Shown: positions 4,701 through 51,419 of the stretch, piece after piece
How the letters are laid out: each line of letters begins with the position of its first letter
Numbering within the stretch: position 1 is the stretch's first letter
Assembly: GCA_937998305.1 (NCBI GenBank)
Contig: CALLDL010000033.1
Location: 6,094-70,093 of the forward strand
DNA: 64,000 nucleotides
Reading direction: 5' to 3'
Origin: an uncultured Desulfobacterales bacterium
GTDB taxonomy: Bacteria; Desulfobacterota; Desulfobacteria; Desulfobacterales; UBA11574
Notes under the pieces: model-generated
Databases searched by the model: none
What the model was told of the DNA's origin: nothing
The model's input: only the letters and a program-made list of their open reading frames with translations
Made by a program: the position numbers and the translations under genes

Positions 4701-7121
4701 TTACCATTTAAACTGGGAATCCGATTTCAATGCAATCCGGTTGAATCGGTACATATCAAACAGACCTGCTTCAACCGGTTCGTCCTTGAGAAACTTCTCG
4801 TAATGCCAGTCAGATTCTGTCCAGAAACTGGGATCGGTTCTTCGTATGGCATACTTTCTGGCAAAATTGTAATAGCTGAGTTGATCCTTTATTTTGAGAA
4901 AATCTTCAACAACATCCTCTATCTGTTCGATGTGAACACGACAGAACGCGTTTGGATAGCTGCCCACGTAACCCTTTACAAGTGTAAGAGTGTCGTCATC
5001 GACAATGCGCCTTCTCTCTTCACTAAACATGATTGAATTATTGCTCAGCGCCTTGTTTCGGATAACGGTATAGGCCAAGTCATTATCCTTATCACCGGTA
5101 ACAACATGAATAAAGGTCACATCCGGGACCACCTGTATCTCAGGGCCGCGAATCCTCGTCATTTTTCTCAGGGCAAGATCTGCTCTCTGTTCAAGAGGAC
5201 TTGAATTTTCATCAACACAGTTTTTTTCAGGACAGCGGTTCAAATAGTCGTTTGCATTGGCAGCCGGACCTACATACTTGTGTATTTTTTCAAAAAACTC
5301 CTTTTTAGGGTCGTCTGTTGTGTAGACAATTTGGGTGTCCCATTTAAGCCCCCGAAAAGGGTTCTGCAGGTGACTCTTAAATTCAGCTCTTGCACCCTTA
5401 TACCATTCTGCCCGGATCTCCTTGCGCTTATCATTTGGAAGGAAGCTTAAAAAATTGTTTTCTCCCTCCATGCGGAGAAAGTCCATATAGAGACGGGTTT
5501 CGAGTTGATGCCCCACATTGCCATACACGTTGAAACCGGCAACCAGCAGATAATGGATACGCTCAAAAAGTGGAAAGTCAATTACCCAACCGGTTTTGGG
5601 AATTTCTCCCACAAACCCCTTGACAACGCTGGCGCTATCAAAATGTCTGAAAACGGTCAACAGCGCATTGTCATTGTAACCATCGCCGTTCCAGATATGG
5701 GTTATATCATTTCCCCTTTTATCCGGATCCAGTTTGGCAAGATACTGTCCCTTGGCATCCAGGTATTTTTTTTGTTTCCGGTAATAGTCCCACCAGATGC
5801 TCATGATTTTGATATTGCTCTCTCTTTCGGCCGGCAAGTCTAAAAAATCACTTACATTGGCAAGAAAGGTTGTATCATTGCTGATGGTGTCCTTTTTTGG
5901 ATCAAAAAAGGACACAAAGAAGTGGTCGTTAATGACATTAAGGGCGACCTGGCCGCGGCAAACAGGCCCTTTGATAAACCCCATATAGAAAAACTGGGCA
6001 TCATCCAGCAAAAACCTGTAACGGGACCCGGCAGGCAGATCTGCAAATGTCTTGAAGGGATTGGAGGCAGTTTCAGGATCATAGGAGGGCAGTTTATTAA
6101 CCTCATAATCGTTTTGCAGAAAGAGCTGCCGATAGCGATCCATTTTTTGCCGGTTCATGCGATAAACCGTGTGATTTTTTACAACAATGGTTGTTTCTAT
6201 TTTACGAAACCGATAGTAGAATTTTTCAATCCCGGGATCATCATAAGGTCTATCCGTATTGATCTCAACCACCGGTTCTCCCGGAGGTGTTTCAGATCGA
6301 ACTAAACGGTAAAATTCCCGGTCCGGAAAAGAATCAAAATGGATGTGGGCGATGAATAGATGTTCATAAATATAGCGTGACACAAGCTGCTGCTTTAAAG
6401 AACTGCCGTTAAAAAACTCCTCCCACGGATCTATGACCTGTTTTGCCTGATCCGACATCTTAGGCCGAACAGTAACCACGGCCCCCTGAATCAGCCAGTC
6501 AACGATGGTTTTATGTTCCTTGTCAGTCAAACCGGGTAATGCATAGGGCATTCCCCAGAGCGGATATTTTTTCTTGTATTCATTGAAATCTTCTGCAGTT
6601 GTACATTCCTGTTTTCGATCAAGGCTGATATCAAAGGCGGCCGGCAGTAGTTCCGTTGTTGGCTGAGGATGCTCTTTTTTCAGCTCGAGCATCATATTCA
6701 CCACGGAGTTTTCAAGATTTGCCTGGGGCGTCTGATCCCTCTCGTTGAGAACCGGATGAAACTCCATCCTTCGCCATTTTTCCACTGAATCGGCATCAAT
6801 AAAAAGACGGGTCGGTTTTACCCGTTTTAACCTGCTTGTGTCATAAACCAGCTTTTTAGTGCCGCCGCGCTCGATTCCTTCAAAACAGGTCAGTTTTAGC
6901 TGACATGGCGCATCATAACAGCCGTGGCACACATCACAGCGACGTTCCAGTATAGGCTGCACATCATCATAAAAAGAGATCTCACCGGGCGCAAGAAAAT
7001 CAACACGCCGATCTACGGTCTGCACCGGCCCGAATTTTTTGTCCAGCTTTGCAGCCCTGTACGCAGTGCATCCGGCCAGAATGATCAGGGCCGTGATGAA
7101 AAAGAGAAAGGTTTTTTTCAT
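4701..7121 (-). CDS. cti: fatty acid cis/trans isomerase (CTI family, heme c)
   Basis: 806 aa. Lipoprotein-type signal ...IILAGC. N-terminal RCDVCHGCYDAPCQLKL matches the conserved CxxCH-containing CTI signature known from Pseudomonas Cti. Confidence 0.8.
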   Translation of the reverse strand: MKKTFLFFITALIILAGCTAYRAAKLDKKFGPVQTVDRRVDFLAPGEISFYDDVQPILERRCDVCHGCYDAPCQLKLTCFEGIERGGTKKLVYDTSRLKRVKPTRLFIDADSVEKWRRMEFHPVLNERDQTPQANLENSVVNMMLELKKEHPQPTTELLPAAFDISLDRKQECTTAEDFNEYKKKYPLWGMPYALPGLTDKEHKTIVDWLIQGAVVTVRPKMSDQAKQVIDPWEEFFNGSSLKQQLVSRYIYEHLFIAHIHFDSFPDREFYRLVRSETPPGEPVVEINTDRPYDDPGIEKFYYRFRKIETTIVVKNHTVYRMNRQKMDRYRQLFLQNDYEVNKLPSYDPETASNPFKTFADLPAGSRYRFLLDDAQFFYMGFIKGPVCRGQVALNVINDHFFVSFFDPKKDTISNDTTFLANVSDFLDLPAERESNIKIMSIWWDYYRKQKKYLDAKGQYLAKLDPDKRGNDITHIWNGDGYNDNALLTVFRHFDSASVVKGFVGEIPKTGWVIDFPLFERIHYLLVAGFNVYGNVGHQLETRLYMDFLRMEGENNFLSFLPNDKRKEIRAEWYKGARAEFKSHLQNPFRGLKWDTQIVYTTDDPKKEFFEKIHKYVGPAANANDYLNRCPEKNCVDENSSPLEQRADLALRKMTRIRGPEIQVVPDVTFIHVVTGDKDNDLAYTVIRNKALSNNSIMFSEERRRIVDDDTLTLVKGYVGSYPNAFCRVHIEQIEDVVEDFLKIKDQLSYYNFARKYAIRRTDPSFWTESDWHYEKFLKDEPVEAGLFDMYRFNRIALKSDSQFKW

Positions 7122-35269: not shown

Positions 35270-35435
35270 ATAATTCCTTTCTATCGAGATAACAAAATCG
35301 ACCTATTCCGAATGTTTCATGAAAATTTTCGAGAGATCTTTTTATTATTGATGAAAACAGTTTGTTATTTACAATTTTGGTTCTTGTTATAAGATGACAA
35401 TTTGCCCGAAGATTTTCTTGTTCAATTTCTCAAAA

Positions 35436-35525
35436 ATTTTCACCCTGCGGGCGTGTGCGAGACGCTCATTAGCCGCGTTATAAAGGGCATGCAAATGAAC
35501 GCCTCGCACACGTGAAATATCCGGG
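35436..35525. repeat. long-hairpin repeat, family E copy 2
   Basis: ATTTTCACCCTGCGGGCGTGTGCGAGACGC...AAATGAACGCCTCGCACACGTGAAATATCCGGG. CGTGTGCGAG and CTCGCACACG are complementary. Confidence 0.6.
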
Positions 35526-35774
35526 CTAGACAATGACCGATAGCGGTTTTGCCTGCCGGTCGATCTTGGTACCAACAGACTCGGAACAAACCGCACACAG
35601 ATATTCATACTTGTCTCCTTCTGGGAGAACGATCAAAAGACGTTTGCGGACTGGAACGGGACGTTTGCACCTCGGGCAGTACAGCTCTGTGGCATCAAAT
35701 TCCTTGAACATTCCATTACCTTTGGTCTTTGGAGTATATGCACCCAGTGGTCCTGTAAGGTTTTTCGGATTCAT
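35526..35774 (-). CDS. small zinc-ribbon-like protein, function unknown
   Basis: 82 aa with paired Cys motifs CPRC...CAVC. No overlap with other calls. Lies upstream of ppiD on the same strand. Confidence 0.5.
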   Translation of the reverse strand: MNPKNLTGPLGAYTPKTKGNGMFKEFDATELYCPRCKRPVPVRKRLLIVLPEGDKYEYLCAVCSESVGTKIDRQAKPLSVIV

Positions 35775-36063
35775 TGTCTTACCTTATCAAAAATATTTAA
35801 CAATAATACAGTTATTAAAGAAATTATTTTGGGTTCAATATGTTAGAACTCAAGTTTCGTACCCCAATATGGTAAAGAAGCCTTTGAAGCAGCCGGCCGA
35901 AAGAAATTTTTTAATATGAAATATTTCTCCGGCCCTCTGAACCATACTGGCGTTGCTGGGAATTAAGGGTGCGAAATTGAGTTCTAATTTATAAGCTACA
36001 GATAATATTTATTATGTATATTTTTGTCAATACTTTCACGCCACAATTTATCCGAAATATTTA

Positions 36064-36093
36064 TTGACATCCTTACCGCCTTTTGTTTAATTT
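36064..36093 (+). promoter_or_regulatory. candidate sigma70-type promoter for tRNA-Ala
   Basis: TTGACA (36064-36069), then a 17-18-nt spacer, then TTAATT/TAATTT. About 12 nt upstream of the tRNA 5' end. The -10 match is weak. Confidence 0.4.
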
Positions 36094-36105
36094 AAATGCA
36101 CATTT

Positions 36106-36181
36106 GGGGCTGTAGCTCAGCTGGGAGAGCGCATGACTGGCAGTCATGAGGTCGACGGTTCGATCCCGTTCAGCTCCACCA
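36106..36181 (+). tRNA. tRNA-Ala (anticodon GGC), CCA encoded
   Basis: GGGGCTGTAGCTCAGCTGGGAGAGCGCATGACTGGCAGTCATGAGGTCGACGGTTCGATCCCGTTCAGCTCCACCA. Cloverleaf folds. G3:U70 Ala identity pair present. Anticodon loop CTGGCAG. Confidence 0.95.
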
Positions 36182-36190
36182 AGGATTATA

Positions 36191-36221
36191 AAGGGTTAGC
36201 CAATTCGGTTAACCCTTTTTT
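36191..36221 (+). terminator. rho-independent terminator after tRNA-Ala
   Basis: AAGGGTTAGCC-aattc-GGTTAACCCTT (11-bp stem) followed by TTTT. Confidence 0.7.
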
Positions 36222-36517
36222 AGTTGAATTATCATGACTGGGTGCAGGGGGGTGCAAGTGGGTGCAGTTTTAGAGTCTAATTGATCGACTTCCGATTTTT
36301 TATGATTCATAGCTGAATATGTGTCAATGAAAGATTCAGCATATAACTTGAAGGAAGGTATTGATTTGGCTTTCTTTTCCTCAAAGCCAAACTCACCGAG
36401 CTGCAGCTTTGCCCGGATTGTACTTGCTACGGCCTCGGCTGATTTCCTGTCACCCTCTTTTCGGGACGTCCGTTTCCCGTTATGGGATATGAACACCCAC
36501 CAGGGATTTCCCCTGCC
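36209..36517 (-). pseudogene. tyrosine recombinase (phage-type integrase) N-terminal remnant
   Basis: ...GRGNPWWVFISHNGKRTSRKEGDRKSAEAVASTIRAKLQLGEFGF... resembles integrase N-terminal (arm-binding/SAM-like) regions. An upstream in-frame TAG sits at 36518-36520. There is no catalytic domain. It lies directly adjacent to the tRNA. Confidence 0.65.
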
Positions 36518-36822
36518 CTAAGTTTTTTGTCTGACTCTTACTTCCATAATAAACCCCTCACTTTCTCCCTGAGGTTAATCCACGGGCAGGGACGTCCTTT
36601 TCAGCCGTATGCGCCTATCCCGTGGGGTTAGTATTATGTAAAACTTTTCATAAATATTATGGAGTATACCCCATAATCTCATGTACTTTGCCATAAATCA
36701 GTGCTTTAAATCAGATCTTTTAATTAATGTAACCATCTAATTTAATTGCAATTTAAATTGATTTGCGCCACAATTATCTGATTTTGCATGGTTTTTGCAC
36801 GTTTAAATAGAAAGAAGCCATC

Positions 36823-36933
36823 ATGAGAAATTCCATTAAAGATTTTATTAAAGACTTTATTCTTTTAGCATTTTTCATAGTTTGCATTATAGCTTCCTTT
36901 TTTTATGCTTTTAATATGACTTCTTTTTTATAA
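36823..36933 (+). CDS. possible 36-aa hydrophobic peptide (below ORF-track cutoff)
   Basis: My translation: MRNSIKDFIKDFILLAFFIVCIIASFFYAFNMTSFL. A strong hairpin terminator follows at 37006-37048. No clear RBS. Confidence 0.25.
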   Translation: MRNSIKDFIKDFILLAFFIVCIIASFFYAFNMTSFL

Positions 36934-37005
36934 AGCAATAAATAACCATATGGCATTATTTTTTGAGTGTTAGGCTATAAATTACTTCTTCGCAGCCTAA
37001 CCTTC

Positions 37006-37048
37006 TATAGCCCCTGGGTACATGTAGCCCCAGGGGCTATATATTTTT
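37006..37048 (+). terminator. rho-independent terminator-like hairpin
   Basis: TATAGCCCCTGGG-tacatgtagc-CCCAGGGGCTATA (13-bp stem) followed by TATTTTT. Confidence 0.55.
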
Positions 37049-37344
37049 CCAGGACAAGCCCGAAAGCTCATCCTGGGCGGTTGATGGTTTTAGTTCATAA
37101 AAGAAGGCTCCGGCCTATGGTTCCCCCCCTTCAAAAACAAAAGCGCCTGAAGGCTTTCCACGGTCCAAGATAATAAACCGCCCACAACGTCACCGCTGCA
37201 AGTGCCTTCAAGCGCTATGTTTGATAATTGGTGTTTCATTTTACTGTGGAATTGGGTTAAATTAGCGGTGCTTCATTTATTCATATAAATATAATGCCAC
37301 CTTTTTTTATTGATTTGAATATATGAATATTGTAAAAGGTGTGT

Positions 37345-37497
37345 ATGGCACGAAAAAACATGACAACAAGTATTGAAAATGACCTCCAGAAAGAGATTAA
37401 AAAGCTCGCCATCGATTTAGAAAGACCTCTAAATGACCTTATAGAAGAATCCTTCCGGGATCTTCTCAAAAAATACGAAAAGAAAGATAAAACATAA
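37345..37497 (+). CDS. ribbon-helix-helix (CopG/Arc-like) small protein (below ORF-track cutoff)
   Basis: My translation: MARKNMTTSIENDLQKEIKKLAIDLERPLNDLIEESFRDLLKKYEKKDKT (50 aa). It has the beta-strand, helix, helix pattern typical of RHH proteins. It replaces the antisense 37281..37544 track ORF. Confidence 0.55.
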   Translation: MARKNMTTSIENDLQKEIKKLAIDLERPLNDLIEESFRDLLKKYEKKDKT

Positions 37498-37536
37498 CAT
37501 TCTAAGTCAGAGATATTCTTATTGAGAGGATCTATA

Positions 37537-37719
37537 ATGAGCATGGGCGATTTTCAGGCTGACCAAGTTGGATATTATGGGAAACCAGTGTCTTCTTTAA
37601 CCAAGGATGAACTACTTAAAGCTGTATTGGAGATATCCGAGATAATTTATAATTGCCCTGTAAAAGGCAAATGCAGTGAAATTTTAGAACGTATAGAGCA
37701 GGAAAAACTCAAAAAATAA
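37537..37719 (+). CDS. small hypothetical protein
   Basis: MSMGDFQADQVGYYGKPVSSLTKDELLKAVLEISEIIYNCPVKGKCSEILERIEQEKLKK. GAGAGGA lies 6 nt upstream of the ATG at 37537. Confidence 0.4.
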   Translation: MSMGDFQADQVGYYGKPVSSLTKDELLKAVLEISEIIYNCPVKGKCSEILERIEQEKLKK

Positions 37720-37814
37720 CCTGTAACCGAGAGGTTGACATGGACTGATTACCAAGACCCCATTTCTCATAGAGGTGGGGTTTTGTATTTGCATTGAACT
37801 AGGGAGGATGATTA

Positions 37815-38264
37815 ATGGGAAAATTTTATGTTGATGAAAACAATCAAGCTAGGATTAACTGTCACAACTGCGGATTAAATAAGAATTTAGATGTAACAAA
37901 ATTTAAGGATACTCATAAAAGGCTGAAGGCCAAATGTCGATGTGGCGAAGTTTTTCGGCTTACCTTGGATTTTCGAAGGCATTACCGTAAGAATGTCAGG
38001 CTTGCTGGTGAATACTTTGTCCAGGGAAAAAATGAAAAGGGAGAAGTACTCATCGAAGACATTTCAATGACCGGAGTCAGATTTGCAACTCTTAAGCCAC
38101 ATAATATTTTCAAAGATGATACAGTTGAATTGAAATTTACTTTAGATAATCCAATGAGAACGAAAGTCCAAGAACTCGTCAAAATAATAAGGACTATCGA
38201 TCGCAATGTTGGTGCACAGTACATCAACCAAAGTCGGATGCAAAGGATTTGGTTTTTTGTATAA
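37815..38264 (+). CDS. PilZ-domain (c-di-GMP-binding) protein with N-terminal zinc-ribbon
   Basis: CHNCG...CRCGEVF zinc-ribbon. PilZ motifs RRHYRK (RxxxR) and EDISMTGVRF (D/NxSxxG). Confidence 0.75.
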   Translation: MGKFYVDENNQARINCHNCGLNKNLDVTKFKDTHKRLKAKCRCGEVFRLTLDFRRHYRKNVRLAGEYFVQGKNEKGEVLIEDISMTGVRFATLKPHNIFKDDTVELKFTLDNPMRTKVQELVKIIRTIDRNVGAQYINQSRMQRIWFFV

Positions 38265-38615
38265 AAACTTAATTTGTCCTTAGACAGAGACGTTTTGACA
38301 ATTTTCAAAAAACAGAATTTGCCTAACCTGACACCAGAAAAATATGATATCTGTAGATCAATTGTTGTTGTGAATGGTGTCGATACTGATAAGATATTCA
38401 AAGAAAGGACAGGGTATAATTTTTGCGATGCGATATTTCCGCATCACAATTTCGAATGAACAAAGGTAATTGTTAGATATCTGGCATCACACATCAAGCC
38501 AAACGACATATTCCTGTTTTTTCGAACAAACTTCTATATTCCTGACGATATGTTCGAATTCAAAATGCATTTATTATACTGTTTTAATTGGGTTTATTTT
38601 TTTCGATAGTTTAAT

Positions 38616-38902
38616 TTAAACATTGGCACTACTTGTGCGCCAGGTCCGCTCTTTCTTGATCTCAGTGGGAAGCTTGCCTATACGACAGTATTTACGCGCG
38701 GTTTTCTCATCCATATCCGCCTTGGCAGCTGCTGTCGCATATGTCTTTTCTGTCTGTATCAATTTCATCAGTCTCCTCACCTGATTGTTTGTGACCATCC
38801 AAGTCTCCTCCGTTGTTTTGATTAAGACTCGGATGTTTTATCGACTTCTTCACTCAACGGGAATTATAATTGTCGTCAGGTGGGAATTATAATTGTCGCA
38901 CA
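38616..38902 (-). mobile_element. truncated IS end: terminal repeats plus N-terminal 60 codons of a DDE transposase (IS21-like, family assignment tentative)
   Basis: The end reads TGTGCGACAATTATAATTCCCA (minus orientation). The 17-mer GGGAATTATAATTGTCG is repeated at 38859-38875 and 38882-38898. The ORF MVTNNQVRRLMKLIQTEKTYATAAAKADMDEKTARKYCRIGKLPTEIKKERTWRT... has an HTH-like N-terminus and then stops. Confidence 0.6.
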
Positions 38903-39002
38903 TCACCATACAGAGCCGTCTCTGACATCGCTCGTGTAACGTTTCGTTTTTGCACGTTTAAATGCGACCCCTCATTTTTTTTAAAAAAAACAAATAATTA
39001 GC

Positions 39003-39031
39003 TTGCTTTCTTTCTCAATAATGATTATTAT
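39003..39031 (+). promoter_or_regulatory. candidate sigma70 promoter of the cold-shock gene (long 5' UTR)
   Basis: TTGCTT (39003-39008), 17-nt spacer, TATTAT (39026-39031). This leaves a leader of about 120 nt before the ATG at 39158. Confidence 0.45.
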
Positions 39032-39157
39032 GCCTCTAATCAACTAAGTCCTGTTTAATCTTCGGGACGGTTTTCTCTCTGAAGGAATAATCCATTTGTC
39101 AAAGTGGCACCCTCCAGTTTGCGAAGTTGAAAAATTTTAAGAAAGGAGGATGTTATC

Positions 39158-39358
39158 ATGACCAATGGAACTGTTAAGTGGTTTAACGACCGAAAAGGGT
39201 TCGGATTTATTGAGCAGGAAGACGGGCCGGATGTGTTTGTTCATCATTCAGCGATCAACGCAAACGGTTTTAAATCCCTCAATGAAGGCGACCGAGTTTC
39301 CTTTGATATAGAGCAAGGACAAAAAGGTCCTGCCGCTGCAAATGTCACTGTGATCTAA
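39158..39358 (+). CDS. cold-shock protein (CspA family)
   Basis: [33 protein letters not shown]... with RNP1/RNP2 motifs KGFGFI and VFVHH. AGGAGG RBS present. Confidence 0.95.
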
Positions 39359-39376
39359 CCTTATGTTCTAAATAAA

Positions 39377-39417
39377 AAGGGCATTCCTTCTAATATTGAG
39401 GGGATGCCCTTTTGTTT
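39377..39417 (+). terminator. rho-independent terminator after csp
   Basis: AGGGCAT...ATGCCCT stem (39378-39384 with 39404-39410) followed by TTTTGTTT. Confidence 0.7.
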
Positions 39418-39530
39418 GGTTTGAATTTTATTTTCCCGATTCGCTATCATCAGACCTTAAACCTCAAAATTCCCTCATAGATCCTGTTCTTGTTGTCATT
39501 ATCAAAAATAACAGCCAAGGAGGTAACAAA

Positions 39531-39683
39531 TTGGCAAGATCAAATTATTCATTTAAAAAACGCCAGAAAGAATTAGCAAGGAAGAAAAAGAAAGAACAAA
39601 AAAGACAACGCAAACTGGATAAAAACGCTATAAATTCAGAAGAGAATCCAAATCAGCCCCAGAATGAAGGAGAGAATCTATAA
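39531..39683 (+). CDS. small highly basic protein (50 aa)
   Basis: AGGAGG-N6-TTG start. LARSNYSFKKRQKELARKKKKEQKRQRKLDKN... The upstream part of the track ORF (from 39396) overlaps the csp terminator, so I shortened it. Confidence 0.4.
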   Translation: MARSNYSFKKRQKELARKKKKEQKRQRKLDKNAINSEENPNQPQNEGENL

Positions 39684-39714
39684 GCGTAGAAACAGGATGA
39701 AAAGGAGAAAAGAT

Positions 39715-40065
39715 ATGCGTCAAAAATATGTGATTTCTCGAGATGATGCTAAAAACAAACTCAAAATCAGGGAATATGCAATCATCGACAAAAATCTGAA
39801 AAAAGTGGCGTCTTCAATGCTGCAAAAGGGAAGTTTTTCATTTCTCTGTGAAGAAACTTATGAAAGTGAAATTATCGTGAGTTCCATCTCCAAAGGAATG
39901 AACGCCTTGGTTGCAATCCTTCGGACCCACAATATATTTCCTATCGAACCATATGCCACCAAAATCGCCGAATCAGTCACGGCGTTATACAATTCATCCG
40001 AAGATAATTCGGTGGAGCTGTTTTTTGACGACGTCGATTTGGTATCTGCTTTGGTACCTGGCTGA
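39715..40065 (+). CDS. hypothetical protein
   Basis: AAGGAG lies 7 nt upstream of the ATG at 39715. MRQKYVISRDDAKNKLKIREYAIIDKNLKK... No recognised motif. Confidence 0.5.
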   Translation: MRQKYVISRDDAKNKLKIREYAIIDKNLKKVASSMLQKGSFSFLCEETYESEIIVSSISKGMNALVAILRTHNIFPIEPYATKIAESVTALYNSSEDNSVELFFDDVDLVSALVPG

Positions 40066-40258
40066 TATGTTATCGATATTTGAAACCAGATAATTTGAAA
40101 TATCAAAAACTAACCTTGGACAATTAAAGGAACGGTACTAAATAAACTGATATCCACCGAACAGAGATAATGTGCCTGAACACAGCACTCTGGCAGGTAG
40201 GTGCTGCCCTTGGTATGAGTGATGACTTAAAAGAAGGGTTTATTGAGGAGACAAAAGG

Positions 40259-40474
40259 ATGGAAAACAGATTGGATGATTTATTTCTGAAGTTTCAAACA
40301 AAGGGGTTTATGCCCATTGAAATCCAAGGACTCATTAAAGATGTTTTTAATATTTTAAGTAATGGTGGATATTGCTCTATAACCGCTGTTAACCAAGAGA
40401 TGGAGGAACTGGGCTGGGGGATAGAAATCATGGATAATGTTACGTACGAATTAGTAAACTCCCTGGTTCAATAA
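40259..40474 (+). CDS. hypothetical protein
   Basis: 71-aa ORF with GAGGAG upstream. No recognised motif. Confidence 0.45.
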   Translation: MENRLDDLFLKFQTKGFMPIEIQGLIKDVFNILSNGGYCSITAVNQEMEELGWGIEIMDNVTYELVNSLVQ

Positions 40475-41000
40475 AAAATGGCAAACATTCTTATCATAAT
40501 GGATATGTGGTCAAAAGCCATTTTGTTTGTGATGAGTTAAAACATAAGATGCCCACCTTAATAATAACAAAATCTTGCACCACGGAGCAATACTTAAAAA
40601 GGGGTTTTTCGATAGTCTCGCTATAGATGGCAGGTTTTTAAGACCTTTAAATTGTTGTGATATATAGTTTTAATAGTTTCAGATTGTCACCGAATAAGTT
40701 TCAATAAAGCCCTGCACATGCAAAAAAAATGTGCCAGATCACTGAAACTTATTCATTTACAAAAATCACCGTATCTCTCCATTTGTCATAACCATTTCGC
40801 AACCTTTCGACCCCAAAACCTTTATCGCGCTAGTGTCCCCGTTTATCCATCCCCCCTCAATACAAACGAAAAATATCCGCTTATAGGGTGAGCCTGGAAT
40901 GCATTTGGCCTTGAGGATTTCGAAAATTTGTTATGATCCATTAGGTTTAAATCTTTTAGTTCAGGATAGTCGATTGATTTCATTGTATTAATTGGCCATT

Positions 41001-41034
41001 CTGGCAGTCATGAGATCGACGGTTCGATCCCGTT
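41001..41034 (+). repeat. direct repeat of the tRNA-Ala 3' half (att-site-like island boundary)
   Basis: CTGGCAGTCATGAGATCGACGGTTCGATCCCGTT matches tRNA positions 36137-36170 at 33 of 34 nt. Similarity decays afterwards (TACTCCAGCA versus CAGCTCCACCA). Confidence 0.8.
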
Positions 41035-41188
41035 TACTCCAGCAATAGAAAAAAAAGGTTGGCTTATGAGGCTGCCCTCTTTTATTATTTGCTCATTTTT
41101 TTAAACGCAGATTTCCCTTCTTGTCTTGACATAATAAGTATATTGGCTTAAGAAATTTTTAATTTTATCAATGATAAATGGTTAAGTC

Positions 41189-41758
41189 ATGATGAAAAAC
41201 CACAATATATGCAATGTATTTTTTTTCGTTATTGCCGGAATCGTCATATGCGTCGCTTTTTTGAATGTGCCCGTAGTATCATCGGGTATGGATCAAGTTG
41301 AGCGAAACACAAGAATTATAGAAACTAAACAATCAAAAAACCCCGTTGTCCATCTATATTTTTCCGACAAAGAGAATTCGTTTCTCAAAGCTGAAACAAG
41401 GGATCTTTTTCATTCAGACAATCCAGTCGAATTTGGCAAAAACATTGTCGAAGCCCTGATAGAAGGCCCTAGGACCGGGCTTATGCGGACAATTCCTGCA
41501 GATACGACACTTAAGGCATTTTATATTTCCCGGGATGGTACAGCTTATGTCGATATGTCTGATACCATTAGAGATGCTCATCCCGGCGGGGTTAAATCGG
41601 AACTTTTTTCGATATATTCGATGGTCAATTCATTAACATTGAACATTCCCGAAATCGATGCGGTAAAGATCCTGATCAGCGGAAAAGAAGCGATGACCCT
41701 GGACGGTCATATAGATGTGCGTTTTCCGTTTAAAGCCAACATGCTTTTAATACGATGA
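41189..41758 (+). CDS. GerMN-domain protein (secreted/membrane-anchored)
   Basis: N-terminal TM/signal segment. [39 protein letters not shown]...[44 protein letters not shown]. Confidence 0.7.
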
Positions 41759-45337: not shown

Positions 45338-45503
45338 GAAAACCTCGACAAAAGAGGGTGCCGGTTTCAGATATGAATATAAAAGAAACCGAAACCATAT
45401 GGTTTTGCTGCATACCCTATAATTTATTACTCAATTGGTTAATAGTCAAATCATATCCTTATATACTTTTCAAACATCACGTTTTATGGTAAAGTTCGTC
45501 ACC

Positions 45504-46271
45504 ATGACTCATATCATATGCATAGCCAACCAGAAGGGTGGTGTGGGAAAAACGACGACGGCCGTAAATTTGTCGGCGGCCATGGCAGTTTCGGAAAAAA
45601 GAATTCTCCTTGTGGATTGTGATCCTCAGGGAAATGCAACCACCGGTTTGGGAATAGATAAAAATCGTATTGAAAGGTCATTATATCACGGCATGATTGG
45701 TAATGTCGATGCCGAGAATCTCATTTTGGATAGTGACATAGAAACCTTGAAAATTATACCCTCAAGGGTTGAGCTGATTGGTTTTGAAGTGGAGATGATG
45801 TCAAAACCCAAGCGTGAAATGGCCCTAAAAAAGCTTTTATCCCAAATTAAAAATTCATTTGAATACATCATAATCGACTGTCCACCCTCCTTGAGCCTTT
45901 TAACGGTTAATGCACTAACTGCAGCCGATGTTATGCTAATCCCGCTTCAGTGTGAATTTTATGCATTAGAAGGCCTTGGACAGCTTCTTCAAACCATGAA
46001 GCGCATCAAGTATAAGTTGAATCCTAAACTTAAAATTGCCGGTATACTTCTCACCATGTTTGATAAAAGAACAAATCTGTCTCATCAGGTTGCCGAAGAT
46101 GCCGAAAAATATTTCAAGCAACTCGTATTCAAGACCATGATTCCCAGAAATGTCAGACTGGGCGAAGCTCCGAGTTTCGGAAAGCCGATCTTGTTGTACG
46201 ATGCAACCTCCAAAGGGGCTCGCAGTTACTTTAATCTTGCAAAAGAGATCATGAAAAATAAATCCTTCTGA
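45504..46271 (+). CDS. parA: chromosome partitioning ATPase ParA/Soj
   Basis: MTHIICIANQKGGVGKTTT deviant Walker A. I prefer the start at 45504 over the track start at 45435. Confidence 0.9.
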   Translation: MTHIICIANQKGGVGKTTTAVNLSAAMAVSEKRILLVDCDPQGNATTGLGIDKNRIERSLYHGMIGNVDAENLILDSDIETLKIIPSRVELIGFEVEMMSKPKREMALKKLLSQIKNSFEYIIIDCPPSLSLLTVNALTAADVMLIPLQCEFYALEGLGQLLQTMKRIKYKLNPKLKIAGILLTMFDKRTNLSHQVAEDAEKYFKQLVFKTMIPRNVRLGEAPSFGKPILLYDATSKGARSYFNLAKEIMKNKSF

Positions 46272-46386
46272 ACAATTCGTTCATCAGGGGGCATATCTAA
46301 AGCCTGTTAACACCGATGAAGTGATCAAAACGAACTTTCAAAATTCGTCGTGTAACACATGTATTGACGAAATTAACGCCATCACA

Positions 46387-47289
46387 ATGAAAAAAGAAAT
46401 GAAAAGTAAAAAAGCCGAATCAGGTTTAAAAAAATCCAAAAAATTGGTCCTAGGTAGAGGTCTTGATGCTTTATTGCCTGATATTGAATCCATGGAAGAT
46501 ATTTCAAAGGAATATTTTACGTGTGATATCGGGCTGATTCAGCCCAATCGTTACCAGCCTCGTTTGCGATTTTCCGACAATGAACTGGAGGATATGGCCC
46601 GTTCCATTCGTCAGCAAGGCATTATACAGCCCCTTTTGGTTAGAAAAGACGACAATGGATATGAGCTTATAGCTGGTGAAAGACGCTTGCGCGCTGCTAA
46701 AAAAGCAGGATTGAAACAGGTGCCTGTGCTTGTCAAAACCATCACAGACACAGATATGCTGGAAATGTCTATTGTTGAAAATGTACAACGGTCAGATTTA
46801 AATCCCATTGAAGAGGCTGAAGCCTATTACCGGCTCATCACAGAGTTCGGTCTCACCCAGGATCAGGCTGCAGATCGCGTCGGGAAAAGCAGATCTGCTG
46901 TTGCCAATTTTATAAGACTTCGTCAGTTGCCGGAGCAAATAAAGGGCAGCATTATGGATGGAGACTTGAGTATGGGTCATGCCCGGGCCTTGCTGGGCAC
47001 TGTCACTTCAGCCCAACAAAATTCGGTATTCCGGGCGATAATTGCAAAAGGACTTTCGGTCAGGGAAACAGAACGTTTGATTAAACGTTTGAAAGCAGAA
47101 AAAGAAAAACCTAAAAAACCTATATCGAGTTCGGAACAAAGATACTTGTCAGATGTGGCCGATGATCTTTCCGGTCGCTTCGGGACCAAGGTTCAGATCA
47201 AACGTCGGGGACAAAAGGGTAGAGTTGAAATCGAATTTTTCAGCAATGACGATCTAGACCGTCTGCTAAGCTTGCTAAAGCAGATATAA
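46387..47289 (+). CDS. parB: chromosome partitioning protein ParB/Spo0J
   Basis: LGRGLDALL, ParB box GIIQPLLVRK...YELIAGERRLRAAK, and HTH region. I prefer the start at MKKEMKSKK (46387). Confidence 0.9.
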   Translation: MKKEMKSKKAESGLKKSKKLVLGRGLDALLPDIESMEDISKEYFTCDIGLIQPNRYQPRLRFSDNELEDMARSIRQQGIIQPLLVRKDDNGYELIAGERRLRAAKKAGLKQVPVLVKTITDTDMLEMSIVENVQRSDLNPIEEAEAYYRLITEFGLTQDQAADRVGKSRSAVANFIRLRQLPEQIKGSIMDGDLSMGHARALLGTVTSAQQNSVFRAIIAKGLSVRETERLIKRLKAEKEKPKKPISSSEQRYLSDVADDLSGRFGTKVQIKRRGQKGRVEIEFFSNDDLDRLLSLLKQI

Positions 47290-47810
47290 TGTCTATTCAT
47301 ATTATCATCGATGGCTACAATCTTATCCGACAGTCCAATTCACTCAGCGATCTTGACCGTCAGGATATTCAGCTGGGCCGAGAGGCACTTCTCGACATGC
47401 TTGCTGCATATCAGAGAATAAAACGTCATATGATAACCGTTGTTTTTGACGGAACCAATGCTCCTCCTTTTTCCCAGCACGAAAATCGAGTCAAAGGGAT
47501 TAAGATCAAATTTTCTCGCAGTGGTGAGTTGGCTGATTCGGTTATTAAACGGATGGCAAACCATGAAAGAGAAAAAGCCTTGGTTGTTAGCTCGGATATG
47601 GATATTGTGAATTTTGCAGCTGCCAAGGGAGCTGCTACAATTAGTTCTTCCAATTTCGAAGAAAAAATCACCATGGCGGTTTATATGGATACAAAGGGGG
47701 TAGAAAGAGAAGACGAAGTCGGGTGGGTCCCCACGACAAAAAAGAAAGGCCCCAGAAAACGACTTTCCAAAAGAAAACGTCGAAATAGGATCAAAATAAG
47801 AAAACTGTAG
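47289..47810 (+). CDS. NYN-domain (YacP-like) predicted RNase
   Basis: MSIHIIIDGYNLIRQS...VVFDG...SGELADSVI...VVSSDMDI. The ATG overlaps the parB TAA (TAATG). Confidence 0.75.
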   Translation: MSIHIIIDGYNLIRQSNSLSDLDRQDIQLGREALLDMLAAYQRIKRHMITVVFDGTNAPPFSQHENRVKGIKIKFSRSGELADSVIKRMANHEREKALVVSSDMDIVNFAAAKGAATISSSNFEEKITMAVYMDTKGVEREDEVGWVPTTKKKGPRKRLSKRKRRNRIKIRKL

Positions 47811-47843
47811 TGTACAGACACCCCACGTAATTAACAAAATATA

Positions 47844-48097
47844 ACCTGAATCTTGCACGAGTCGGAGGCTTTCATATGCAAGGCACTTAAGGGCGAAGCC
47901 ATAGTCTGTTATTGCGAGCCCTTAATAACACGGCAGATGAAAGCCTCCGGCTCGCCCTTTAGGGTGAGAATTGATGAGAAAAAAGATCATCATCCGATTT
48001 ACCATTTGGGTAAAATGTATGATGCTATGATGTTGTTAAAACCCGCTTCAATTTAGGATTATAAAGATGCTCATCAATTTTCAGGCAGGATTCAGGT
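47844..48097 (+). mobile_element. MITE-like repeat, family A copy 2
   Basis: Termini ACCTGAATCTTGC...GCAGGATTCAGGT. Collinear with 21944-22227 at high but imperfect identity by eye. The 67-aa track ORF inside it is not conserved in copy 1. Confidence 0.65.
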
Positions 48098-48209
48098 GAA
48101 ATTCGGAAAACAGTGAGACAGATCGCTGTTTTTATTGACGTTAATCCTGTTATCTGATAGCAAAAACATTTCCGAATAGTTATTGCCAAAAATTAAAAAA
48201 TAATAAGGT

Positions 48210-48668
48210 ATGAGTCATACAGATAAAAAGCCAGTTTTGCAGCGGATATGTGTCATCGACGGGCAGGGCGGAGGCATCGGAAGCGCGGTCATTAAAAAGC
48301 TAAAGGATCTTTTTGGAGAGGCCGTTGAAATTATTGCTCTTGGGACCAATGCCATTGCAACGGCTCAGATGCTGAAAGCCAAAGCTAACAGGGGTGCATC
48401 TGGAGAAAATGCCATTGTTCAGACAACAGCAAAGGTTGACATTATTATCGGAACCGTTGGAATTATCGTGGCCAATGCCATGATGGGAGAAGTTACACCC
48501 AAAATGGCAGAAGCCGTGGCCAACAGTTCGGCAAAAAAACTGCTTATACCACTTACCCAAGAAAATATTGAAATTATAGGTTTATCGCCAACTCCCCTCC
48601 CTCATCTTATCGAGACACTTTTACAGGAAAATTTAAAAAATTTCTATGATGAGGTTCAACACGTATAA
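48210..48668 (+). CDS. DUF3842-like protein
   Basis: ICVIDGQGGGIGSAVIKKLK...IIALGTNAIATAQMLKAKANRGASGENAIV resembles the DUF3842 family as I remember it. Not verified. Confidence 0.5.
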   Translation: MSHTDKKPVLQRICVIDGQGGGIGSAVIKKLKDLFGEAVEIIALGTNAIATAQMLKAKANRGASGENAIVQTTAKVDIIIGTVGIIVANAMMGEVTPKMAEAVANSSAKKLLIPLTQENIEIIGLSPTPLPHLIETLLQENLKNFYDEVQHV

Positions 48669-48688
48669 ACTGTAAATTAAAAATAAAT

Positions 48689-48761
48689 TGTAACACTTTC
48701 TCCTTTTGAAAACATTACCGCTTCCTTTGAAATCGATTTGTTTCAAAGGGCTAAACTATTA
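48689..48761. repeat. 74-bp palindromic element, family D copy 2
   Basis: TGTAACACTTTCTCCTTTTGAAAACATTACCGCTTCCTTTGAAATCGATTTGTTTCAAAGGGCTAAACTATTA. Confidence 0.7.
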
Positions 48762-48800
48762 AAATAAATTTTATTTTTAGAAATTATAAAGGAAAACATG

Positions 48801-48986
48801 ATGTGTGAAGCAAACGCATACTTAATTGAAGGAGATGAGAGAATACTGGTAATGGAAGCGGTTGATACCGTCGAACCCGAAGATGGTGGCGTACGATTGG
48901 TCAGTATTTTTGGGGATCAAAAATTTATAGATGCCCACATTCATTCATTGGCCCTCGTAGACCACCATATTTTTTTAAAAAAATAA
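48801..48986 (+). CDS. cooT: CooT-family nickel-binding protein
   Basis: MCEANAYLIEGDERILVMEAVDTVEPEDGGVRLVSIFGDQKFI... The family signature is the N-terminal Met-Cys, so I start at the second ATG (48801). Confidence 0.7.
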   Translation: MCEANAYLIEGDERILVMEAVDTVEPEDGGVRLVSIFGDQKFIDAHIHSLALVDHHIFLKK

Positions 48987-49071: not shown

Positions 49072-50799
49072 ATGAAAATATTAATTGCTAAGAAGGCCGG
49101 TTTCTGCATGGGAGTACGAAGAGCCGTTGAGATGGTTCTGGATGCTCCGAATAAACACGAAAATCCGATCTGTACGTTTGGACCCCTTATCCACAATCCG
49201 CAGGTTTTAGATCTATTAAGAGAAAAAGATATATCCACATTAGAACATATACCGGAGTACGGAACAGGTACTGTTTTAATTCGTGCTCACGGCGTTCCCC
49301 CCCAAACCAAAAAGAATCTTAAAAAAGCAGGTTACAAAATTATCGATGCCACCTGTCCCCGAGTTATTAAAGTTCAGACTATCATCCGGAAACATGCCCA
49401 AAAAGGTTTTGCATCTATAATTATCGGAGACAAAGATCATCCTGAAGTCATCGGACTTTTAGGATATGCAGAGGGAAAAGGGTTTGTCGTTGACAATTTA
49501 GATGATCTTGACTCCCTTCCATCCTTTGAAAAAGCGATTATTGTTGCTCAGACCACTCAAAACACACTTTTTTTTGAGGAAATAAAAAAATGGGCAAATA
49601 ATAAATATTCCCACTATAAAATCTTTGAAACGATTTGCGATTCTACCGCAAAGCGCCAGGCTGAGGTCCAAAACCTGGCAGATTCAGCAGATGCTGTTAT
49701 TGTTGTTGGTGGACAAAACAGTGGAAATACGAAGCGGCTTGCTGAAATTTCAAAAAAGACCGGCAAACCGACATATCACGTTGAAACTGAATCGGAAATT
49801 GATGTTGACGCTCTTTCTGAAGCCAAATGTGTCGGGATTACAGCAGGGGCTTCCACGCCGAATTGGGTTATTAAAAAAATATACAGAACCCTTGAGGCCC
49901 TGCCTTATAAAAAGAAGCAAGGCTTGCAAAGGGTTATTTTTCCCATCCAGCGTGTACTGCTTCTTACCAACATCTATGTATCCATCGGCGCCGGATGTCT
50001 GTGCTATGCCTGTATCAAAATTCAGGGGATTACAAATAATTTGCATCATGTGCTTATATCCATGCTTTATGTTCTATCCATGCACATTCTCAACAATCTC
50101 ATCGGTACAAAGGCAGACAAATATAACGATCCTGACAGATCCTCCTTTTATAACAAAAATAAGATATTGCTTTCTTTTCTTGCGTTTACTGCAGGCGGCA
50201 TTGGTTTGATGACTGCCTATTCAGTGGGCTGGGTCCCTTTTTTAATCCTTTTCGTTATGAGTATAATGGGTCTTTCTTACAATCTAAGGCTTATTCCGAA
50301 ACGTTTTGAATACGATAAATACTCACGGCTTAGGGATATCCCTGGATCAAAAACGGTTCTGATTGCAATGGCATGGGGAATCGTGACTTCTGTTTTGCCT
50401 CGATTGTCTGTATCGGGAGGTATTCATCTGAATACGGCCATCATATTCTTATGGTCACTGAGCCTGGTCTTTGTCAGAACAGCATTTTTTGATATTCTTG
50501 ACATGCAGGGTGACCGCATTGTGGGTAAAGAGACGATTCCCATACTGTTAGGAGAAAAGCGAGCTTTGCGTCTTTTAAAAACGATACTGGCCATAAATTT
50601 TGGCATTTTGTTTATTTCAAGCACATTTCAACTTATATCAAGTTTAGGTTTTATACTTTTAATCTGTCCGGCTTTTGTTTTCATAATGCTTTCAGCGCAT
50701 GAGCGAGGCTATATGCTTCCCGGCATACGGTTGGAATTTCTGGTCGAAAGTAATTTTGTTGTTGCAGGTGTTATGACATTGATCTGGTCGCTGCTATAA
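49072..50799 (+). CDS. ispH: 4-hydroxy-3-methylbut-2-enyl diphosphate reductase (IspH/LytB) fused to a UbiA-type prenyltransferase-like membrane domain
   Basis: N-terminal half: MKILIAKKAGFCMGVRRAV...FGPLIHNPQV...ATCPRV...VGGQNSGNTKRL. C-terminal roughly 290 aa: multiple TM helices with Asp-rich motifs NNLIGTKADKYNDPDR and FFDILDMQGDRIVGKETIP. Confidence 0.8.
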   Translation: MKILIAKKAGFCMGVRRAVEMVLDAPNKHENPICTFGPLIHNPQVLDLLREKDISTLEHIPEYGTGTVLIRAHGVPPQTKKNLKKAGYKIIDATCPRVIKVQTIIRKHAQKGFASIIIGDKDHPEVIGLLGYAEGKGFVVDNLDDLDSLPSFEKAIIVAQTTQNTLFFEEIKKWANNKYSHYKIFETICDSTAKRQAEVQNLADSADAVIVVGGQNSGNTKRLAEISKKTGKPTYHVETESEIDVDALSEAKCVGITAGASTPNWVIKKIYRTLEALPYKKKQGLQRVIFPIQRVLLLTNIYVSIGAGCLCYACIKIQGITNNLHHVLISMLYVLSMHILNNLIGTKADKYNDPDRSSFYNKNKILLSFLAFTAGGIGLMTAYSVGWVPFLILFVMSIMGLSYNLRLIPKRFEYDKYSRLRDIPGSKTVLIAMAWGIVTSVLPRLSVSGGIHLNTAIIFLWSLSLVFVRTAFFDILDMQGDRIVGKETIPILLGEKRALRLLKTILAINFGILFISSTFQLISSLGFILLICPAFVFIMLSAHERGYMLPGIRLEFLVESNFVVAGVMTLIWSLL

Positions 50800-50813
50800 T
50801 CGGATATATTGTC

Positions 50814-51419
50814 TCATTTCCAAATGGGAGGCTCCGTGCCTGCCAGAAGCCTTTTGATGTTATCCATATGGCGAAAATAGATGATTATAGTCATTATAAC
50901 GGCACATCCAAGTATGACTTCCGAGCCGGTAGCTTTCCAGATTGCAACAGGCAAGACGGCAGCGGTGGCCAGGGAGGCGAGCGAAACACGGTTCGACCAG
51001 CAAACAAACATGATAAAAACCAGAATCAGAATTACCAGTGCAACAGGTGAAATGACGCCAAAGCATCCTGCTGCGGTTGCAACCCCTTTTCCTCCGTTTT
51101 TGAATTTCAGATAGACAGGATAAAGATGCCCCATAAAAGCTGCAAAAGCTACTAGTGCAATGTAGAGGGCACCCCATACTTCATTTGGAGTGGTCATTGA
51201 TACAGCCAACCAGACCGGGAAGGCCCCCTTTAGGATGTCGCCGGCAAGGGTCAGGACTCCGAGCCTTGGTCCTGCCATGCGCCCCACATTCGTTGCACCG
51301 ATATTTCCACTTCCCACCTGTCTGATGTTAATGGGGGTAAACAGCCGGGTCAGAATGAGTCCTATGGGAATGGAACCCAAAAGATAACTGAAAATAGGTA
51401 GCACGAGGTACTTGATCAT
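50814..51419 (-). CDS. plsY: glycerol-3-phosphate acyltransferase PlsY
   Basis: LGSIPIGLILTRLF...IRQVGSGNIGATNVGRMAG...LAGDILKG. Confidence 0.9.
   Translation of the reverse strand: MIKYLVLPIFSYLLGSIPIGLILTRLFTPINIRQVGSGNIGATNVGRMAGPRLGVLTLAGDILKGAFPVWLAVSMTTPNEVWGALYIALVAFAAFMGHLYPVYLKFKNGGKGVATAAGCFGVISPVALVILILVFIMFVCWSNRVSLASLATAAVLPVAIWKATGSEVILGCAVIMTIIIYFRHMDNIKRLLAGTEPPIWK

Follow-up and report, generated by a model that had tools for sequence, protein, structure and literature searches.

One open reading frame (ORF) of the window, by which the whole analysed stretch of 64 kb of DNA from an uncultured Desulfobacterales bacterium (contig CALLDL010000033.1) is meant, encodes a protein of 575 amino acids (aa) in which an N-terminal IspH (LytB), the terminal enzyme of the methylerythritol phosphate (MEP) pathway, is joined to a C-terminal membrane domain of the UbiA superfamily. 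The ORF (49072..50799, + strand) is a genuine fusion and an ordinary member of the published IspH-UbiA family. It is best explained as a genuine bifunctional, membrane-anchored IspH-UbiA protein of sulfate-reducing Desulfobacterota with an active UbiA-type membrane half, and a probability of about 0.65 was assigned to this explanation. A preliminary description of the window had implied that the architecture was new. This was wrong, because IspH-UbiA fusions had already been described in a paper that also characterized IspH-RPS1 (Rao, O'Dowd, Li, Wang, Oldfield, Chem Sci 2015; PMC4746011).

The same description had proposed one uninterrupted ORF of 575 aa with a complete IspH/LytB at the N-terminus, and both proposals were confirmed. 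According to the ORF list and the sequence, the ORF starts with ATG and is devoid of internal stop codons, and both Pfam domains, LYTB and UbiA, lie in its single frame (Table 1). LYTB (PF02401) matched aa 3-274 with an E-value of 1.2e-93 and 313.8 bits, compared to a cutoff of 24.5, and the NCBIfam model TIGR00216 (ispH_lytB) matched aa 2-276 with 298.2 bits (cutoff 187.85). Residues 2-274 could be aligned end to end with IspH of A. aeolicus (3DNF, E 3.7e-69), and E. coli IspH was aligned as well. The Cys contexts FCMGV and ATCPRV that had been noted before are real and contain ligands of the [4Fe-4S] cluster, and the third ligand is found in TICDST. The conservation was analyzed with 88 diverse full-length fusions that are 33-60% identical, and the cluster ligands and catalytic residues were essentially invariant. 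Cys95 and Cys189 were present in 88/88 fusions, and position 12 was Cys in each of the 77 fusions with a residue at this column, while the remaining 11 have a gap. The substrate and catalytic residues H41, H73, H123, E125, T161/T162, S217, N219 and S261 are present (E. coli counterparts H41, H74, H124, E126, T167, S225, N227 and S269), and they were kept in 84-88 of the 88 sequences.

An AlphaFold2 (AF2) model of the whole protein was built from an alignment of 84 full-length sequences, which was used instead of an alignment of contig-end fragments that had yielded a poor model of residues 1-94. The model had a mean predicted local distance difference test score (pLDDT) of 94.1 and a predicted template modelling score (pTM) of 0.90. 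A Foldseek comparison of the IspH half with 3dnf, 3ke8 and 4n7b resulted in template modelling scores (TM-scores, all normalised to the target) of 0.81-0.84 and E-values down to 7e-23, and it revealed the trefoil three-domain alpha/beta fold. Thus, by every available sequence test the N-terminal 277 residues are predicted to be a catalytically complete reductase of (E)-4-hydroxy-3-methylbut-2-en-1-yl diphosphate (HMBPP), which makes isopentenyl diphosphate (IPP) and dimethylallyl diphosphate (DMAPP). The stand-alone enzymes of A. aeolicus (3DNF) and E. coli (3KE8) share the full-length alignment, the Cys ligands, the His, Glu, Thr, Ser and Asn residues and the fold (TM-score 0.84), but they are soluble proteins of about 280-320 aa without a membrane domain.

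The C-terminal half had been described as polytopic and UbiA-like, and both properties were verified. Pfam UbiA (PF01040) matched aa 324-540, corresponding to profile positions 23-227 of 250, with an E-value of 2.4e-13 and 50.4 bits, above the gathering cutoff of 34.2. The hydropathy analysis revealed nine hydrophobic segments. The linker and the loops 2-3, 4-5, 6-7 and 8-9 are rich in Lys and Arg, while the loops 1-2, 3-4, 5-6 and 7-8 are not. According to the positive-inside rule, these charges indicate a topology with nine transmembrane (TM) helices and a cytoplasmic N-terminus, as expected for UbiA enzymes. With this topology IspH would sit on the cytoplasmic face of the membrane, the same face that carries the motif-bearing loops. 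The conserved polar residues of the membrane half on this face are N341, D349/D353, R356, Y403, K427, R469, D474, D477, D481 and E487.

The Foldseek comparison of the membrane half resulted in TM-scores of 0.70 for ApUbiA, 0.66 for AfUbiA, 0.55-0.56 for digeranylgeranylglyceryl phosphate (DGGGP) synthase (DGGGPS), 0.55 for UBIAD1 and 0.44 for decaprenyl-phosphate phosphoribosyltransferase (DPPR synthase, 8j8k). ApUbiA (4OD4/4OD5), AfUbiA (4TQ3-6) and DGGGP synthase (6M31/7BPU) have the nine-TM UbiA fold and the second motif type D-x-x-D-x-x-G-D...G-x-x-T-x-P in common with the membrane half, although the sequence identity is only 14-18%. In the first motif, the three proteins have the first metal-binding Asp where the fusion has G345. 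In addition, a signature in the loop between TM4 and TM5 (L4-5), Y403...DIPGSK427, and the fusion to IspH set the membrane half apart from archaeal UbiA enzymes. The signature residues of L4-5 are 88-99% conserved among the diverse fusions.

The distribution of the fusion was analyzed with a genome scan that included one genome per GTDB species. A relative was encoded in 305 species representatives. The best 80 loci of these genomes (60-95% identical) were all from metagenome-assembled genomes (MAGs) of Desulfobacterales, Desulfobacteraceae or Thermodesulfobacteriota, and in 79 of them IspH and UbiA were joined in frame and without interruption. The closest loci (92-95% identity) were from MAGs annotated as Desulfobacterales, Desulfobacteraceae or delta proteobacterium, and the gene content of the window, such as MvhD/FlpD-type and CooT genes, agrees with an origin from Desulfobacterales or sulfate-reducing anaerobes. 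When only the UbiA half was used for an exhaustive profile search, 235 representatives (at 50% identity) were found below an E-value of 1e-30, the best 150 of which were examined. Among these, 87 were full-length fusions of 540-634 aa with the common IspH-UbiA architecture despite an identity of only 33-60%, 22 were fragments that retained the IspH C-terminus, and nearly all others began inside the domain or at contig ends. The preliminary description had named a stop codon or frameshift between two separate genes as a possible refutation, and the loci and representatives in frame do not bear this out. The fusion is real and old.

The distance between W265 and TM1 was 35 residues in 68 of the 88 fusions, with a range of 32-38, and the linker (aa 278-290) is among the least conserved stretches of the sequence while it is nearly fixed in length. 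Together with the pTM of the AF2 model, the near-constant spacing indicates a defined, fixed docking of both domains in the predicted structure.

Several single loci deviated from the common pattern. In a related MAG (locus L030, 1103-2830) the IspH part contains a break of the frame that a pseudogene or an assembly error could explain. Another locus (L019, 7164-9140) contains an ORF of 658 aa with a C-terminal extension. The representative P0216 (L089, 301-1224) is possibly the sole genuinely unfused UbiA-half gene among the best 150; its contig has a length of 1.3 kb and a coverage of 2.8x, and the 300 nt upstream of the gene do not contain an IspH-like sequence in any frame.

The substitution pattern was compared for the two halves. 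In comparison to close relatives (dS 0.5-1.2) the ratio of nonsynonymous to synonymous substitution rates (dN/dS, omega) was 0.09-0.13 for the IspH half, and for the UbiA half it was 0.11-0.17. Both halves are under equally strong purifying selection. Among the 88 diverse fusions, conservation within the protein was highest in the cytoplasmic loop between TM6 and TM7 (L6-7), followed by L4-5, and lowest in the periplasmic loops and the linker. The conservation peak in the cytoplasmic loops is the pattern of an active site, and it suggests that the membrane half probably acts as an enzyme rather than as an anchor only.

The preliminary description had claimed two Asp-rich motifs that resemble the catalytic motifs of UbiA enzymes, and this was correct for the second motif, while the first had been placed in a wrong register and is in fact degenerate. 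The second motif, DILDMQGDRIVGKETIP, has the canonical form and is highly conserved (D477-M-Q-G-D481, with D474 upstream), and it was aligned by phmmer with DIDFD of ApUbiA. In the 88 fusions, R469 was found 83 times, D481 and G485 87 times each, E487 83 times and G494 85 times. D474 was Asp in 71 and Glu in 8 sequences, and position 477 was acidic in 71 (62 Asp, 9 Glu).

The sequence ADKYNDPDR, which had been taken as the first motif, is not the canonical block but consists of the last Asp of motif 1 and an N-x-P-x-R tail, KYNDPDR, which follows motif 1 as in DGGGPS/ChlG-type enzymes. The register follows from N341, N352, P354 and R356, which are invariant in the family, and the triad region thus reads N341-N342-L-I-G345-T-K-A-D349. 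Compared to the canonical N-D-x-x-D-x-x-x-D only one of three Asp residues is kept. The same register was obtained when an alignment of the diverse family was compared by hhalign with a canonical UbiA-family protein (INDINDVEKD), although this match was short and weak (E 0.036); with a low-diversity family alignment the match to canonical UbiA was meaningless. In the AF2 model the block is predicted to lie at the end of TM2, which supports the register. Position 345 was Asp or Glu in 62 of the 88 fusions (it is Gly in the present clade), and position 349 in 24. ApUbiA, for which a substrate-bound structure is available (4od5), has NNIADLDID as motif 1 and thus also starts with N-N, so that the missing first Asp is not by itself a mark of inactivity. 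What is unusual is the second Asp, which is absent or shifts its position. The atypical first metal-binding motif may mean that the chemistry of the membrane half differs in detail from that of textbook UbiA enzymes.

The selection and the conservation point to a membrane half that would act as an active Mg2+- and diphosphate-binding UbiA-type transferase and not as a passive anchor. Most likely, it would move a prenyl group onto a lipid or small-molecule acceptor in the membrane. From the logic of the fusion, the terminal MEP step would thereby be placed at the membrane beside a consumer of prenyl diphosphates. In addition, the fused IspH probably serves as the housekeeping IspH of the cell, to which its origin-proximal housekeeping neighbourhood (see below) fits. 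A coupling of IPP and DMAPP formation to a prenylation step is a hypothesis here as well as in the literature, where it has been proposed that IspH feeds IPP and DMAPP locally to the prenyltransferase (PMC4746011).

Several results weigh against this explanation. In motif 1 two of the three canonical Asp are absent from the present protein. Position 342 was Asp in none of the 88 fusions, 15 of the 88 lack an acidic residue at both positions 345 and 349, and 8 lack it at 345, 349 and 353. All curated UbiA subfamily models of NCBIfam remained far below their cutoffs. The best score was 49.5 bits for PRK13591 (cutoff 238), followed by 34.8 for PRK12884 (269), 27 for the DGGGPS models (278-296), 21 for MenA (277), 19 for homogentisate phytyltransferase (226) and 13 for ChlG (313), and the 4-hydroxybenzoate UbiA models did not match. 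A family profile of the membrane half did not match any PDB sequence, and a phmmer search of the PDB with the UbiA half alone yielded only a marginal match to ApUbiA (E 0.34), so that structure comparison alone was successful. These results show that the membrane half is very divergent in sequence. An isoprenoid, quinone or lipid partner gene that is conserved beside the fusion was not found. Lastly, expression of the full-length protein failed in the earlier study, and truncated material only, but no active full-length protein, was obtained (PMC4746011).

An alternative explanation is that the membrane half has lost canonical catalysis and is mainly an anchor or scaffold, which would hold the oxygen-sensitive IspH near low-potential electron donors of the membrane or near downstream membrane enzymes, or would sense membrane isoprenoids. 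Localisation and sensing had also been raised as alternatives by Rao et al. (PMC4746011). The variability of motif 1, whose acidic residue moves between positions 345 and 349, keeps this explanation alive, and it agrees also with the replacement of D477 of motif 2 in some clades (e.g. P0139, P0171 and P0185), with the very low scores against all curated prenyltransferase subfamilies and with the lack of conserved acceptor-pathway genes nearby. However, an omega of 0.11-0.17 would not be maintained over about 290 residues of an anchor. In addition, the loop L6-7 with D474, D477, D481, G485, E487, T488 and P490 is conserved above the average of IspH, and the Asn at the first motif-1 position is shared with ApUbiA. 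Taken together, a mere anchor was regarded as unlikely.

It is tempting to speculate that the membrane half, with its degenerate motif 1 and its own L4-5 signature, represents a distinct class of UbiA-fold enzymes, to which a docked and membrane-bound IspH, as the sole copy, would pass C5 units directly. Such an enzyme would use DMAPP or IPP, or conceivably HMBPP, for a membrane isoprenoid that is specific to sulfate-reducing Desulfobacterota. This possibility is a rather doubtful one. If the fused protein were indeed the only IspH, an entire bacterial order would have an obligatorily membrane-bound last MEP step.

A further alternative is an active UbiA-fold enzyme with non-classical chemistry, which would either catalyze a reaction similar to that of terpene cyclases or transfer a non-prenyl diphosphate donor onto polyprenyl phosphate. 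The model for the latter would be decaprenyl-phosphate phosphoribosyltransferase, which uses phosphoribosyl pyrophosphate, and the product would feed lipid-linked glycan synthesis. In one distant lineage the gene directly 3' of the fusion encodes a UbiA protein of the DPPR synthase type (NF008977, 253.9 bits, cutoff 234), in another one a GT2 glycosyltransferase gene overlaps the 3' end of the fusion, and the atypical motif 1 could reflect a different diphosphate substrate. However, these are two anecdotal neighbourhoods, and such genes were missing from the four other distant and the 80 close contexts. Furthermore, the fold is nearer to ApUbiA and AfUbiA than to DPPR synthase, and the nearest curated models are those of DGGGPS/ChlG-like prenyltransferases. 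Non-classical chemistry is distinctly improbable. Lastly, an assembly or sequencing artefact, in which a missed stop codon or frameshift has joined adjacent ispH and ubiA-like genes, might be suspected from the broken frame in L030 and the possible stand-alone gene P0216 on its short contig, but it is effectively refuted by the same open frame with near-constant spacing in 79 of the 80 independent species-representative loci and in the 87 full-length representatives, and by isolate genomes that show the architecture independently, including those of Desulfobacula toluolica and Desulfobacterium autotrophicum (PMC4746011).

In comparison to the earlier work, the IspH-UbiA protein described here does not differ in architecture. 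Rao et al. reported 47 sequences of IspH-UbiA 'Rosetta stone' fusion proteins, primarily from Desulfobacterales and all from sulfate-reducing anaerobes (PMC4746011). The order of an N-terminal IspH and a UbiA-like C-terminal half with about nine TM helices, the size of roughly 575-585 aa and the taxonomic setting (Desulfobacterales/Desulfobacteraceae) are the same. The UbiA half had been classified as CDD subgroup PT_UbiA_5, to which no function was assigned, and a separate MenA/UbiA gene covers menaquinone synthesis in the fusion-bearing genomes (PMC4746011). A literature search did not find follow-up work on IspH-UbiA after 2015, and public MAG annotations already carry the architecture. What goes beyond the earlier description is the larger family (305 genomes and 235 representatives), the degenerate motif 1, the pattern of selection and conservation, and the full-length model of high confidence. 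IspH-RPS1 (NCBIfam NF000907; Clostridia, Fusobacteria) likewise has an N-terminal IspH in a protein of doubled size, but its C-terminal partner consists of soluble S1 RNA-binding repeats instead of a membrane domain. NF000907 yielded the best NCBIfam E-value for the IspH half, due to its IspH portion, yet with 322 bits and a cutoff of 624 the present protein is not a member.

Having been published in 2015, the architecture has little weight as a discovery. The questions of what the UbiA half makes and of whether abundant marine sulfate reducers have a sole, tethered terminal MEP enzyme are sharpened by the strong selection on the cytoplasmic loops, the atypical motif 1 and the rigid docking of the domains that the model predicts. 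D349, D353, Y403, K427, R469, D477 and D481 are suggested as targets for mutagenesis.

Table 1. Coordinates of the IspH-UbiA fusion gene, its domains and motifs, and the adjacent genes (window positions)
Feature	Position	Strand	Residues and remarks
IspH-UbiA fusion gene, complete	49072..50799	+	575 aa and stop codon; from ORF list and sequence
IspH/LytB domain	49072..49902	+	aa 1-277; predicted cytoplasmic [4Fe-4S] HMBPP reductase; PF02401, TIGR00216
Cys12 codon, cluster ligand	49105..49107	+	GFCMGV; corresponds to E. coli C12 (alignment with IspH of E. coli and A. aeolicus)
Cys95 codon, cluster ligand	49354..49356	+	ATCPRV; corresponds to E. coli C96 (same alignment)
Cys189 codon, cluster ligand	49636..49638	+	TICDST; corresponds to E. 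coli C197 (same alignment)
Linker, short and basic	49903..49941	+	aa 278-290, LPYKKKQGLQRVI; between IspH domain and TM1
UbiA-superfamily membrane domain	49942..50796	+	aa 291-575; predicted nine TM helices, N-terminus on cytoplasmic side
Motif 1 region, degenerate NDxxDxxxD...NxPxR	50092..50139	+	aa 341-356, NNLIGTKADKYNDPDR; conservation analyzed in 74 close fusions and in 88 diverse ones
Loop L4-5, family signature	50269..50352	+	G400, Y403, P409 ... D-I-P424-G-S426-K427; cytoplasmic
Motif 2 region, loop L6-7	50476..50553	+	aa 469-494, R469...D474-I-L-D477-M-Q-G-D481-R-I-V-G485-K-E487-T-I-P490...G494; cytoplasmic
Upstream array parA - parB - YacP-like NYN - DUF3842 - cooT	45435..48986	+	co-directional; Pfam for NYN_YacP, DUF3842 and CooT
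plsY, glycerol-3-phosphate acyltransferase	50814..51419	-	convergent; PF02660, E 9e-49

In the neighbourhoods of orthologues, which the preliminary description had proposed to examine, the upstream array was retained in close relatives, while a conserved enzymatic partner was not found near the fusion in six distant and 80 close contexts. ParA and ParB of the window were identified by sequence motifs and by Pfam-annotated homologues in the loci L081-L084. In the close loci with enough flanking sequence, the array was kept upstream of the fusion in 83-91% of the cases (CooT 59/71, DUF3842 52/64, YacP 54/60, ParB 50/55 and ParA 44/49). In the locus L083 (12695-14943) ParAB, DUF3842 and CooT were also found beside a distant fusion of about 40% identity, in inverted orientation and at a distance of about 6 kb to dnaA. 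Near the origin, DUF3842 and CooT are linked to parAB as well as to ispH. In the distant lineages the neighbours are different; a Dus gene was located upstream twice, and otherwise mostly unrelated genes were present. Elsewhere in the 64-kb window, neither a second IspH nor other isoprenoid or quinone genes were found.

In two of the distant loci, L081 (11874-12743) and L083 (11788-12714), a gene for polyprenyl-linked chemistry follows directly 3' of the fusion; one is the gene of the DPPR synthase type and one is the GT2 gene, which overlaps the stop codon of the fusion. These two neighbourhoods may hint at polyprenyl-phosphate-linked glycan synthesis, albeit anecdotally.

On the downstream side, only 14 nt lie between the stop codon of the fusion gene and that of plsY (50799-50814), and a terminator-like hairpin was not detected between them. 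Only 36 of 67 close loci had plsY downstream of the fusion, and it was absent from the distant contexts examined. Its adjacency was rejected as a functional clue, because it is not conserved beyond close relatives. Scans for promoters and terminators performed no better than with shuffled sequence.

Two additional regions of the window were conspicuous. In the region 35300-41200 the coding density is low over about 6 kb; this stretch contains only small ORFs and starts at a tRNA gene (36106-36178, +). Neither tandem repeats nor Rfam families other than the tRNA were found in it. The ORF after the tRNA (36209-36496, - strand) resembles, by eye only, an N-terminal fragment of a tyrosine integrase, and the stretch may be a remnant of an integrated element. 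The second region (4701-7121, - strand) encodes a fatty-acid cis/trans isomerase of full length (E 2.8e-273 with Pfam CTI), and it adjoins genes for a Rieske protein and cytochrome b (960-2990). As CTI is known mainly from aerobic Pseudomonas and Vibrio, its occurrence in what appears to be a Desulfobacterales genome may be noteworthy.

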